Shown piece by piece: positions 2,401 through 4,414 of a stretch of 64,000 bases of DNA. Made by a program: the position numbers and the translations under genes. The DNA lies in the sequence record OZ336093.1. The stretch is one strand, 5' to 3'. Every line of letters starts with the position of its first letter. The first letter of the stretch is position 1. Source of the stretch: a phage. The notes beneath the pieces are model-generated. The model saw only the letters and a program-made list of their open reading frames with translations, made no database searches and had not been told where the DNA came from.

Positions 2401-2594
2401 AATGACCTCAAAGTTATATTAAATTTTGTATTACGTTGAGTATAAAAATAAGCTATAACACCTGACTTGTCAACAGATTTTATAGCTTATTTGGCAGATT
2501 TTTTATAAGGCTACTGCCATCCTTCCATACCATACCACACCAAACCACACCATACCGAACCACACCCTACCAAACCCGACCAAACCCGACCGAG

Positions 2595-2633
2595 CATCAC
2601 TTAAAAATCCTCTTAGAAGACTCTTAAGTGATG
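2595..2633. repeat. inverted repeat CATCACTTAA-N19-TTAAGTGATG (copy 1 of 3)
   Basis: perfect 10 bp arms; related copies at 3986-4046 and 4160-4199. Confidence 0.7.
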
Positions 2634-2744
2634 TAATCGAATTTTTATGTAGCTCCGATTAACTACCCGCACTTTACCAAACCTCACCCTACCCTACCAG
2701 ACCTTACCTAACCGCGCCGTACCTCATTAAAAGACCCTCTTAAA

Positions 2745-2778
2745 GACCTTTTAAAAAGGAGCCTCCGAAGAGGCTACC
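2745..2778 (-). terminator. rho-independent terminator
   Basis: minus strand reads GGTAGCCTCTTCGGAGGCTCC followed by TTTTT, directly downstream of the 2787-3227 gene. Confidence 0.6.
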
Positions 2779-2786
2779 TAGTCAAC

Positions 2787-3227
2787 TTAGAAAGGTTTTC
2801 TACGTTGCTTGTTAATGTTAGCTTTCATAGCAGCTAAATGGTTTTGCTGTTCAATCAGTCGTGAGCGTTCTTGATGGCTAAGTGCCATAGTGTTCACATT
2901 CTCAATCGCTTGAGTGGCTTGCTTTAAAGCACGACCAATCTTACCAGACATTTTACGTTTTGCAATAGTTGCTTGATGTTTAGGTTCAACCACACGATAG
3001 CCAACACCCATTGAAGCAACCAGATAAATCTTCTCTTCTTTAAGAAGCTTTTCAATAAACTTCTCAAGTCGGTTTAGTCGTGTAAGTGCATAAGCCTTCA
3101 TTTCATCTTCGTACTTAACAATGTCACCTTGATAAGTTGGCTTCACAATACCTAAGAAGGTGTCCATCTCAGAATGTGATACAGTGTCACCGTAACTGAA
3201 CTTTGCTGCTAATGCTTTTGTATTCAT
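2787..3227 (-). CDS. hypothetical protein
   Basis: 146 aa ORF; first gene of a two-gene cassette bracketed by repeat-rich spacers. Confidence 0.5.
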   Translation of the reverse strand: MNTKALAAKFSYGDTVSHSEMDTFLGIVKPTYQGDIVKYEDEMKAYALTRLNRLEKFIEKLLKEEKIYLVASMGVGYRVVEPKHQATIAKRKMSGKIGRALKQATQAIENVNTMALSHQERSRLIEQQNHLAAMKANINKQRRKPF

Positions 3228-3229
3228 AA

Positions 3230-3832
3230 TTAAACGTTACCTTCTGAAATAACTTCTACAGAAAAACGACCAAAGCGTGGACGCCAATCACCTACACCAC
3301 AAAGGTTACCAGCATTTTCCAGAACCATCAAGAGTTCCTCTTTGGTGATTTGCTCTTCATCGAACATCAAACCGAACTCTACAGACCAGTCACGGAAGAT
3401 TGGACGGTAGCTCATAACTCGTGCTGTACCAATCTTAACAGACTTAGCATAGATAAAGTCTGGATTCTTAGCAAGTTCTTGTGGGTTTGCTGGACAGTTC
3501 TTGATAGTCATTGGGAAGACTACATCTGTCAGCATAATGGCTCGGTCAATTACCTTACCAAGTTTGTTGAGTTTTGCACCAGACTTGATACAAGCCTCAA
3601 TCATCTCACCGTTCATAACAAAACCTAGCTGCTCATCGTAGTAACAAGAGGTTACCAGTTGGCTTTCTGCTAAGAGCGCATAGTCTTCGTCAGTCTTTTT
3701 ACGCTTACTGGACAGAGACTTGTGATATTTTGTCAGAGGGTTTAATGGGTCTGACAGTGTATCGTTATGGCTCAGGAAAGGACGAGTACCAGTGATTTTG
3801 ATATTTAACAGTTTCATAGCATTTAGCTCCAC
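3230..3832 (-). CDS. hypothetical protein
   Basis: 200 aa ORF; second gene of the bracketed cassette. Confidence 0.5.
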
Positions 3833-3985
3833 ACTTTAGTTTATTGTTAAGTTGTTTGTAAAGAACCCTCAACAGAAGACTCTTTAGAAACTTGGTAGAT
3901 TTTTAACGTGGCTACTACCATCCACCCACACTTTACCATACCTCACCGCGCCTTACCCGACCGGGCTGCACCTTGCCTTGCCAAA

Positions 3986-4046
3986 CATCACTTAAAAACC
4001 CTATGAGATAACCTATCGAGTATAATTTAAAGGCTCTTAAGTGATG
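3986..4046. repeat. inverted repeat CATCACTTAA...TTAAGTGATG (copy 2, longer loop)
   Basis: same 10 bp arms as 2595-2633. Confidence 0.65.
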
Positions 4047-4159
4047 CAATCGAATTTTAATGTAGCTCCGATTAACTACCCATACCCTACTTTGCCTTGC
4101 CGTACTGTACTTTACCCGACCATACCGGACAATACTTAACCCGACCTCGCCCTACCGGA

Positions 4160-4199
4160 CATCACTTAAAAACCCTCTTAGAAAGACTCTTAAGTGATG
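4160..4199. repeat. inverted repeat CATCACTTAA...TTAAGTGATG (copy 3)
   Basis: near-identical to 2595-2633 including loop CCTCTTAGAA(A)GACTC. Confidence 0.7.
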
Positions 4200-4414
4200 C
4201 TGGTGAGTACCCGTTGGTTTATGCTGCTCAGTATACTCACCAAATTTTCTATGTCAACAACTTTTTATAAAAAAGTTCTGATAGCTATATGTGTCACGAA
4301 ACAAAAGATTGTAAACAAGACACCCATTGCAAAAGATGTGTCCAAAAGCTTACTTGCAACGTATGACAATACAAAGACAACCAGTATAAACAGAATGACT
4401 GTACTGAACATAGT

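Follow-up and report, generated by a model that had tools for sequence, protein, structure and literature searches.

The region from position 2445 to 4257 of the window, meaning the whole 64-kb stretch of phage DNA that was analysed, is with a probability of about 93% a VIPR (Viral Interference Programmable Repeat) locus of type II. It would belong to the SUSP1 clade, and it is found on the minus strand of a Felix O1-like coliphage. As far as its searchable text goes, the preprint on the system describes VIPR as a phage-borne relative of CRISPR whose guide RNAs are made from five-base GGY-NN repeats (bioRxiv 10.64898/2026.04.26.720920). Because VIPR is already the subject of two 2026 preprints (bioRxiv 10.64898/2026.04.26.720920, 10.64898/2026.04.26.720927), the locus is a rediscovery and not a new system. 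It contains the genes vipr and vap1 and four vrRNAs, one pair upstream of the genes and one pair downstream, all on the minus strand. Each vrRNA consists of 11-16 GGY-NN pentamers and a 34-nt pseudoknot tail, and a leader hairpin is located 5' of each. The neighbouring ORFs encode a ligase, an HTH protein and small hypothetical proteins, and the locus lies among replication genes (ligase, polymerase). The sequence-only reading had described a two-gene cassette between repeat-rich spacers, and every element that it listed was found, with small corrections. The function of the locus is apparently to silence a parasitic E. coli satellite.

The two ORFs were confirmed at 2787-3227 and 3230-3832. 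The ORF at 3230-3832 (minus strand) is vipr, which is predicted to encode a RAMP-fold guide-RNA-binding protein. While the ORF is open from GTG at 3832, the likely start is ATG at 3817, giving 195 aa, because this is the annotated start in relatives and the residue numbering then fits the published structure. Vipr is a single-RRM RAMP of ~22 kDa with a glycine-rich loop and a thumb, in line with the small (~20 kDa) proteins of the clade, and its GGY-contact residues are identical to those of SUSP1 Vipr. The protein is 97.9% identical to those of SUSP1 and SUSP2 (195 aa compared for SUSP1), and more than 90% identity to SUSP1 Vipr is given as the mark of SUSP1-clade membership in the searchable text of the preprint (bioRxiv 10.64898/2026.04.26.720920). 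The ORF that begins 2 nt after vipr is vap1 (2787-3227, minus strand), encoding a VIPR accessory protein of 146 aa that is 99.3% identical to the product of the post-vipr gene in SUSP1 and SUSP2. A word-based homologue search recovered near-identical proteins only, and a full HMMER scan was needed to collect the vap family, which has 234 representatives. The predicted model of Vap had a pLDDT of 95.9, and a fold search with it was uninformative and did not confirm the predicted DNA-binding nature of the protein. In Pfam, neither cassette protein had a match or a DNA-binding domain, and PHROGs placed both only in families of unknown function.

The runs of ACC and CCGACC type that had been noted in the spacers are real, yet under-described: on the minus strand, they resolve into four arrays with a strict 5-nt period of the form R-G-Y-N-N. 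The arrays are located at 4082-4159, 3928-3985, 2669-2721 and 2527-2594 on the strand that codes for every gene here, and a window scan detected at least 8 in-register RGY units out of 10 only at these four places in 64 kb, the maximum in 20 mononucleotide shuffles being 5-7 in-register units. Written as YNNGG units, the tract of vrRNA A1 (4082-4159) comprises 16 units with NN = CC AG GA CG TA AT CC AT CG AA AC AC AA AA AG AT, and that of A2 (3928-3985) comprises 12 with NN = TT AA AA GC CC CG AA GC GA AT AA GT. Downstream of the genes, B1 (2669-2721) has 11 units with NN = AC GC TA AA CT AG AG GA TT AA GC, and B2 (2527-2594) has 14 with NN = TC CG TT CG TT AG GT TC AT GT TT GT AT AT. Such arrays correspond to the SUSP1-clade vrRNAs, for which the searchable text of the preprint gives 9-16 tandem YNNGG repeats, constant in GGY and hypervariable in NN, within intergenic sequence on both sides of the genes (bioRxiv 10.64898/2026.04.26.720920).

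Comparing 22 Felix-like loci with 1,108 units, positions 1-3 of the unit stayed G/A-G-Y and positions 4-5 took all four bases; the constancy of positions 1-3 is descriptive only, because the units were picked by the R-G-Y criterion. These loci had 7-18 units per array and 2-3 arrays per spacer, and indels among them were always multiples of 5. Homologues with 37-40% protein identity on unrelated metagenomic viral contigs also had sense-strand arrays alongside, of GGC type in L025 and GGT type in L028. Considering that GG recurs every 5 nt on the non-template strand and that the locus lies amid replication genes, the pentamers could be imagined as G-quadruplex or R-loop elements, e.g. of a replication origin by the ligase and polymerase genes. 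We give this reading a probability close to nil, because a pyrimidine at position 3 and a strict register would be needless for such elements, the tails and target matches described below would be left unexplained, and roughly half of the relatives lack the locus and still replicate. Cis RNA binding like that of potexvirus coat proteins and R-loops like those of Ig switch regions were dropped as well, given the RAMP fold, the literature and the target matches.

In the VIPR reading, each array is followed by a structured tail. The 35-bp block that the two spacers had been said to share is present at 2634-2668, one base to the left of the earlier start at 2635, and at 4047-4081, and the two copies are identical at 33 of 35 positions. 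While the block itself exists, the string quoted for it is a hybrid of both copies, matching the right copy at 34 of 35 positions. This block forms the 3' tail of the vrRNA, which is an H-type pseudoknot whose pairs covary strongly, and after each array 34 nt form a hairpin with loop-to-3' pairing. All four tails are on the minus strand. The A1 tail, the right copy of the block (4048-4081), pairs S1 as GTAG/CTAC and S2 as AATCGGA/TTCGATT, and the B1 tail, the left copy (2635-2668), is likewise a pseudoknot. Pseudoknot variants were modeled for A2 (3894-3927; S1 GTGG/CCAC, S2 GGTAG/CTACC) and B2 (2493-2526; S1 AAGG/CCTT, S2 GGCAG/CTGCC). The proposed pairs were paired in 96.7% of cases, 9 of the 11 pairs were changed on both sides, and 0 of 500 shuffles equalled this, while slid registers were only 26-36% paired. 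According to the searchable text of the preprint, the VIPR vrRNA tail is constant, ~40 nt long and conserved in structure, including a pseudoknot (bioRxiv 10.64898/2026.04.26.720920). A search of Rfam 15, which has no vrRNA model among its families, returned chance-level matches only (E at least 1.9). The spacers have common content because they carry guide-RNA genes, each an array plus a pseudoknot tail.

Three perfect 10-bp inverted repeats had also been reported. Exactly six copies of the 10-mer CATCACTTAA are indeed present in the window. They form three inverted pairs at 2595-2604/2624-2633, 3986-3995/4037-4046 and 4160-4169/4190-4199, giving the left spacer one hairpin and the right spacer two. 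A whole-window motif search found no further exact copies in the 64 kb, so that the arrays and the exact 10-mers are confined to the locus and the repeats are no generic genome-wide element. When up to one mismatch was allowed, 18 matches were found against 8.4 +/- 2.9 in shuffles, and 0 of 100 shuffles reached 18. On the minus strand, leader hairpin 1 (the third palindrome, 4160-4199) has the stem CATCACTTAAGA/TTTTAAGTGATG and the loop GTCTTTCTAAGAGGGT. Leader hairpin 2 (the second palindrome, 3986-4046) has the same stem and a 37-nt loop with an insertion, and the hairpin of the first palindrome (2595-2633) is again built on CATCACTTAAGA/TTTTAAGTGATG. A second stem class, TTAAAAG/CTTTTAA with the loop GTCTTTAAGAGGGT, forms the leader hairpin at 2727-2754 (minus strand), and a hairpin of the same loop family is located between the last upstream vrRNA and vipr (3859-3886, minus strand; stem TAAAGA/TCTTTA, loop GTCTTCTGTTGAGGGT). 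Leader hairpins thus stand 5' of all four arrays in the window, and the family recurs in relatives, where three unrelated stems at the same position enclose one conserved loop (GTCTT..RGGGT) and the stems covary. Since the stem is swapped and the loop is kept, this is the signature of an RNA hairpin and not of a DNA operator sequence.

The sequence-only reading had offered operator sites for a dedicated regulator as one explanation of the palindromes. The CATCACTTAAG sites would then be DNA operators bound by a regulator whose gene is part of the cassette or close to it, and the spacers would be ordinary regulatory regions. Perfect 10-bp inverted repeats do flank the genes on both sides, and a Cro/C1-type HTH protein is encoded at 1511-1840, about 600 bp downstream of the locus. 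However, the palindromes are in leaders that would be transcribed, downstream of the promoter at 4257-4230 and directly 5' of the arrays, and their arms are 15-16 nt apart (37 nt in hairpin 2), a wide gap for an operator bound by a dimer. The replacement of stems by unrelated complementary sequences around a kept loop points to a folded strand instead of a duplex site. Furthermore, most of the shared spacer sequence is accounted for by arrays and tails, and the cassette proteins are without a Pfam DNA-binding domain, one of them being a RAMP-fold RNA-binding protein. We therefore consider operators very unlikely.

Taken as leader hairpins, the palindromes may mark the vrRNA boundaries as processing sites or start signals. 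The hairpin (loop GUCUU..RGGGU) could be a dedicated signal for vrRNA biogenesis or loading, such as a 5'-end processing site, and it could be the place where assembly of the Vipr filament begins or ends. RNase III is unlikely to be the general processing enzyme, because the stems of two classes out of three measure only 6-7 bp (up to 12 in some relatives).

In a consensus scan, the sole strong sigma-70-type promoter of the locus was located at 4230-4257 (minus strand; TTGACA-16-TATACT, 11/12), and from this sequence match it would drive the upstream vrRNAs, vipr and vap. Just 3' of vap, at 2760-2775 (minus strand), an intrinsic-terminator-like stem reads AGCCTC TTCG GAGGCT and then CCTTTTT. 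The downstream vrRNAs, B1 and B2, come after this hairpin, and no recognisable sigma-70 promoter of their own appeared in the scan. A promoter-like site for the next gene (2017-2400) was detected at 2445-2473 (minus strand). It marks the low-coordinate end of the module, and a vipr-less relative gives the same boundary.

Three of the four guides, A1, B1 and B2, matched an ~11-kb chromosomal E. coli satellite at 84-95% of their NN positions under a one-nucleotide-skip rule only; with skips of 0, 2 or 3, the guide matches stayed at background. The A1 match (27/32) is in ORF185, the first gene of the satellite operon, in frame and with the skipped base at the wobble position, and among the 11 satellites fetched the site was in frame in most, with 21-27 of 32 positions matched. 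B2 (24/28) falls in the satellite serine-recombinase (integrase) gene, where it is in frame and wobble positions are again the ones skipped, and B1 (21/22) falls in the intergenic region just upstream of a 236-aa gene annotated as 'transposase'. The predicted sites are at 9146-9192 of satellite contig L040 for A1, and at 11232-11263 (B1) and 15879-15919 (B2) of L033. When each guide was shuffled 300 times, the maxima were 23 for A1, 18 for B1 and 21 for B2, and 0 of 300 were as good as the real guide. In the case of A2, no significant target was found in the 11 satellites fetched, where the best match (18/24) was equalled by 32 of 300 shuffles. Exact xNN scans gave 0 matches for A1 in viral contigs and 0 for A2 in viral or species-representative genome contigs, and exact scans are the wrong tool here because natural targets are imperfect (best 84-95%). 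Two further matches, of A2 in E. coli cmoB (18-19 bases) and of B1 in L030 (17/22, out of frame and weak), were judged to be chance. In the phage's own 64 kb, no comparable self-targeting was found, the best self match of 16-21 being background.

Of 5,426 complete E. coli genomes, 367 carry the satellite family, strains 08-3914 and K56-43-un being examples of bearers, and the target comparison sampled 11 of those 367. In the searchable text of the preprint, natural targets of the SUSP1 clade follow the xNN one-skip rule, are mostly coding with the skipped base at wobble, and converge on an E. coli satellite with no self-targeting (bioRxiv 10.64898/2026.04.26.720920). A tblastn search of the window with 11 satellite proteins returned no matches. 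As such, the helper-satellite link with this phage rests on the guides together with the preprint's statement on SUSP1.

The arrays also resemble the binding sites of a known protein. TRAP of Bacillus binds 11 (G/U)AG repeats with a 5-nt period, in which three recognised bases alternate with a two-base spacer and one subunit binds each unit. The arrays here share with these sites the RNA repeats, the 5-nt period, the number of about 11 units and the three recognised plus two spacer bases. By analogy with TRAP sites, pentamers with three constant and two variable positions, located in the 5' UTR and between the genes of an operon, might be cis-acting RNA sites for a ring or filament protein that autoregulates the operon, with no DNA target in trans. 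However, the NN bases are informative, matching satellite genes in frame under one spacing rule and far above shuffles, and two of the arrays come only after the terminator of the operon. The protein fold is RAMP and not TRAP, and the SUSP1 experiments reported in the searchable text of the preprint show trans targeting of DNA (bioRxiv 10.64898/2026.04.26.720920). Autoregulation in cis is thus highly improbable. TRAP has a non-RAMP fold and acts in cis on its own transcript with uninformative spacer bases, whereas in the VIPR locus the spacer bases would be the guide, acting in trans on DNA.

As for how the locus would act, the searchable text of the preprints reports for SUSP1 and a P. fulva prophage that vrRNAs are expressed and co-purify with Vipr, and that the RNP binds dsDNA and represses transcription (bioRxiv 10.64898/2026.04.26.720920, 10.64898/2026.04.26.720927). 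In SUSP1, vap1 enhances repression (bioRxiv 10.64898/2026.04.26.720920), and the mechanism was studied by cryo-EM (bioRxiv 10.64898/2026.04.26.720927). Based on the 98% identity of Vipr to that of SUSP1, we infer that vrRNA expression, RNP formation and repression probably take place in this phage, too. By the mechanism that experiments established for SUSP1, one Vipr protomer would occupy each repeat and sequester the GGY bases, so that the NN dinucleotides are displayed as a gapped guide. These would pair with double-stranded DNA, skipping every third target base, usually the codon wobble position, and the bound complex would give an R-loop or triplex that blocks transcription, an effect that vap1 may strengthen. 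In this way, the phage may silence a satellite that would otherwise parasitise it.

Compared with the type II VIPR of SUSP1, the locus agrees in gene order, in GGY/NN vrRNAs within 9-16 units, in the kind of pseudoknot tail, and in targets that follow the one-skip rule and belong to an E. coli satellite. In contrast, SUSP1 belongs to the genus Suspvirus and the present phage to Felixounavirus, the published SUSP1 locus (L020) has one upstream and three downstream arrays where two and two are found here, and the guides carry NN sequences peculiar to this phage. The kinship with the RAMPs of class 1 CRISPR-Cas (Cas7 family: Csm3, Cmr4, Cas7-11) is at fold level only. Class 1 systems have a 6-nt period with five pairing bases, whereas the period here is 5 nt with two pairing bases per unit, the guide information is non-contiguous, and the locus is on a lytic phage. 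The repeats at the locus are units of 5 nt, and neither a CRISPR array (identical direct repeats of ~24-40 bp with unique spacers) nor cas1/cas2 or any further cas gene was found there or nearby. According to the searchable text of the preprint, VIPR is a form of RNA-guided DNA recognition reported only recently, and it is proposed to predate CRISPR (bioRxiv 10.64898/2026.04.26.720920). The present window demonstrates that VIPR can be recognised from raw sequence alone, and it provides an independent in-silico replication on another phage of the repeat code, the pseudoknot tail, the RAMP fold, the one-skip rule and satellite targeting. It also yields three specific pairs of guide and target, plus a satellite family that has been mapped, and these are directly testable.

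The cassette is not invariant: vipr is present in about 118-130 of ~260 Felix-like phage records, and about half are without the cassette. The suggestion of an inserted or recombining module holds in part: the cassette is an accessory unit, present or absent among relatives, one of which retains a hybrid spacer. Presence/absence polymorphism, the hybrid single spacer in the vipr-less relative and the differing numbers of units and arrays among close relatives might indicate that the repeats have no function themselves and mainly serve recombination or mark where a mobile cassette has been. Functionless repeats of this kind would hardly keep GGY in over a thousand units with NN variable, allow only indels of multiples of 5, covary in tails and leader hairpins, or retain the same arrangement at 37-40% protein identity, and we hold this explanation to be most improbable. 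The unbroken 5-nt period, the covarying tails and hairpins, and the same layout at 37-40% identity indicate selection on RNA. Recombination between the spacers follows from the repeats and does not compete with the guide-RNA reading. A role as terminal repeats or packaging site was also rejected, as UAB_Phi87, a related phage, has its direct terminal repeat of 608 bp beside the tRNA cluster and not at this locus. The Felix O1 genome paper gives other repeats and not these.

Two points, the leader hairpin and a solo-vrRNA remnant, could go beyond the preprints, as both are absent from the searchable text of the two, figures being outside that scope (bioRxiv 10.64898/2026.04.26.720920, 10.64898/2026.04.26.720927). 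That the hairpin as a vrRNA signal, a functional solo vrRNA, or both add something new is a tentative and rather doubtful proposition. The remnant was seen in the one relative checked, the vipr-less Salmonella phage GEC_vB_B1, which has one 282-bp hybrid spacer at the exact site, its left part aligning to window positions 2401-2633 and its right part to 4120-4264, as expected of the leftover of recombination between two repeated spacers. A functional solo vrRNA could borrow Vipr from a co-infecting phage or serve as a decoy that soaks up a rival's Vipr, and in GEC_vB_B1 a single promoter-driven vrRNA is kept at the site.

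We assign the locus to the VIPR systems of the SUSP1 clade with a probability of about 0.93. Preprints of April-June 2026 had already presented this striking system, and the present result is a rediscovery. In the text of the first preprint, a VIPR system has three parts by definition: Vipr, an ancestral RAMP protein of ~20 kDa, the accessory gene vap, and guide RNAs (vrRNAs), each with 9-16 YNNGG repeats and then a constant 3' tail, which in the SUSP1 clade contains a pseudoknot; the experimental model, Escherichia phage SUSP1, shares its subfamily with Felix O1 (bioRxiv 10.64898/2026.04.26.720920). 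Pfam, PHROGs and Rfam searches gave no useful result for the locus, and GenBank annotates both genes as hypothetical, with at most a "repeat_region" marked. The window is from a Felix O1-like phage; its positions 2001-4600 matched 258 phage records, led by Escherichia phage allfine (97%).

Every gene around the locus is on the minus strand, and the locus was read 5' to 3' on that strand. A strong sigma-70-type promoter (4257-4230) is followed by a leader hairpin, array A1 and a 34-nt block, then by a leader hairpin, array A2, a 34-nt block and a third hairpin, and then by vipr (3817-3230) and vap (3227-2787). Beyond a terminator-like stem (2775-2760) lie a hairpin, array B1 and a 34-nt block, then a hairpin, array B2 and a 34-nt block, and finally the promoter of the next gene. 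The sequence-only reading had described palindromic 10-mers, a shared 35-bp block and ACC runs in the spacers around the two genes, and these repeats were borne out. Exact copies of the 10-mer CATCACTTAA occur in the 64 kb only as three inverted pairs (2595/2624, 3986/4037 and 4160/4190), and the 35-bp block has two copies (2634-2668 and 4047-4081) with 33/35 identity. The ACC runs proved to be the four arrays, which on the coding strand keep a strict five-base R-G-Y-N-N period that is unique to them within the 64 kb; shuffles fall short of it. Other strongly strand-skewed 60-nt windows were located at 39653-39735, 48197-48305 and 26475-26535, where the plus strand is C-rich/G-poor or G-rich/C-poor; the five-base RGY register is absent from all of these.

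The 34-nt block folds as an H-type pseudoknot, in which stem 1 is GTAG/CTAC and the loop AAUCGGA pairs with downstream UUCGAUU. Relatives pair AGUCUCA with UGAGACU at that position, and the last tail of each cluster has GUGG/CCAC with GGUAG/CUACC, or AAGG/CCUU with GGCAG/CUGCC. Among 11 distinct tails, 96.7% of cells were paired and 9/11 pairs had changes on both sides; none of 500 shuffles was as good, and slid registers gave 26-36% pairing.

The palindromes had been read as possible operator sites. In the window, a hairpin stands 5' of each of the four arrays, with one more behind the final vrRNA of the upstream spacer. These hairpins have a conserved loop (GTCTT..RGGGT; 14-16 nt, extended to 37 nt where it carries an insertion), and the stems at 22 loci fall into three unrelated classes, CATCACTTAAGA/TTTTAAGTGATG, TTAAAAG/CTTTTAA and TAAAGA/TCTTTA. 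RNA folding predicted the stems of the upstream leader (z = -3.6 for the whole leader). This pattern of kept loop, swapped stems and predicted RNA fold fits a folded transcript instead of operators. Considering that the vrRNAs reported in the preprint text are only ~100 nt (repeats and tail), the hairpin of this transcript is probably removed or marks a start. RNase III is an unlikely candidate for acting on the hairpins in general, since two stem classes are too short. The text of either VIPR preprint, figures aside, does not mention a leader hairpin. At 4160-4169, the 3' arm of the hairpin (TTAAG TGATG) shares the register of the array that follows and reads as two degenerate YNNGG-like units, perhaps by chance or perhaps as a trace of an origin of hairpin arms from array units.

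Vipr was 97.9% identical to that of SUSP1/SUSP2 and the second protein 99.3%, and the SUSP1 locus showed its 1 + 3 array layout, as published. The text of the cryo-EM preprint describes a right-handed filament with one protomer per repeat, an R-loop triplex on the target, and GGY contacts by H17, R138, D177, W178, R179, E71, M72 and C173 (bioRxiv 10.64898/2026.04.26.720927). All of these contact residues are present in the window Vipr. The same preprint lists T175 as one of the residues that shape the pocket for the pyrimidine (10.64898/2026.04.26.720927). Residue 175 (3293-3295, minus strand) is V in both the window and the SUSP1 locus; at every other residue named there, Vipr agrees.

According to the text of the first preprint, pairing is between the NN dinucleotides and double-stranded DNA, and in each unit one target base, usually at the codon wobble position, is passed over; binding represses transcription, vap1 enhances the effect, and a satellite in E. 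coli chromosomes is the target of 18/20 SUSP1-clade guides with identifiable targets (10.64898/2026.04.26.720920). By analogy, this mechanism, established by direct experiments on the 98%-identical SUSP1 system, would carry over to the window. Fold, code, tail, target rule and satellite target were reproduced here independently in silico.

When the locus was searched with BLAST against 5,426 complete E. coli genomes, a 68-bp vrRNA-like (tail-like) match appeared in 66 chromosomes. One such match sits inside an ~11-kb island, the satellite (locus L030, 4716-16461; also loci L031-L040), with genes for a large serine recombinase, baseplate, tape measure, HNH endonuclease, and Dam methylase or AP2-type protein. 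One gene pair of the island was found in 367/5,426 genomes at 67-100% identity, and the satellite uses three integration sites (wrbA/ymdF, yecN-DUF72/yecD and yciI/tonB). We scored the four guides with skips of 0-3 against 11 satellite variants from these sites, and a signal appeared at skip 1 only. Guide A1 matched the island's 185-aa first gene in frame (27/32), the site being shared by most of the variants scored (21-27/32); B1 matched 49-80 nt upstream of a 236-aa gene (21/22), and B2 the recombinase gene, with the wobble position skipped (24/28). NN-shuffled guides peaked at 23, 18 and 21 for A1, B1 and B2, respectively, and 0/300 equalled the true match in each case. Guide A2 had no site in the 11 variants (best 18/24, equalled by 32/300 shuffles) and exact searches for it in two public collections were negative. 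Guide matches in the phage's own 64 kb were at background only, and tblastn of satellite proteins against the window gave no match. A GGYNN array is also present in some of the satellites themselves (L030 14976-15035, plus strand; L037 7408-7472, minus strand), with a tail resembling the phage's last-type tail and no vipr gene annotated. Such vrRNAs presumably use the helper phage's Vipr, in line with a remark in the preprint text that satellites encode vrRNAs.

In records of Felix-like phages, vipr is present in about half (about 118-130 of ~260). Salmonella phage GEC_vB_B1 (MW006474) is without both genes and has at the same site one 282-bp spacer (1402-1683 of the retrieved locus), comprising a promoter, leader hairpin, degenerate ~9-11-unit GGYNN array and last-type tail. 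The spacer is a hybrid, its left part aligning with window 2401-2633 and its right part with 4120-4264, and from its sequence seems to be a 'solo vrRNA', as would remain after the repeated spacers had recombined. Taken together, the partial distribution and the hybrid spacer indicate that the locus is an accessory module. The earlier suggestion of an inserted or recombining module thus holds in this form, and its operator alternative is not supported. A 48-aa hydrophobic ORF (4265-4411, minus strand; phrog_22006, unknown function) between the DNA ligase gene and the VIPR promoter lies outside the module, whose limits are set by the vipr-less relative. The downstream neighbours, both on the minus strand, are a 127-aa protein with a signal-peptide-like N-terminus (2017-2400) and a Cro/C1-type HTH protein (1511-1840; Pfam HTH_3, E 6e-10); a tie to VIPR is indicated for neither.

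The locus search for vipr relatives retrieved 18 close Felix-like loci and, with protein identity down to only 37-40%, six viral contigs from metagenomes. The close relatives have 7 to 18 units per array and 2 to 3 arrays per spacer, with constant register and GGY and all four bases used at positions 4-5. Three of the six contigs (L024, L025 and L028) have clear arrays: near-perfect GGYNN repeats on the sense strand surround the vipr homologue and the ~148-aa gene that comes after it; in the other three the arrays are degenerate. Since arrays accompany homologous genes in such distant contigs, the two genes and their arrays belong together as a single conserved unit. The repeat is of GGC type in the GC-rich L025 and of GGT type in L028, tracking GC content, and the tails of the three contigs are unlike the Felix type. 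Their arrays occupy almost all intergenic space (L025 2446-4005, L028 2374-3828, L024 2422-3700) and terminate in GGTTTTTT(A), 10-25 nt upstream of the next start codon. Two records named after unrelated hosts, GU169904 ('Staphylococcus phage SA1') and MG065668 ('Campylobacter phage A126'), hold Felix-like sequence 94-96% identical across the locus and are probably mislabelled or contaminated.
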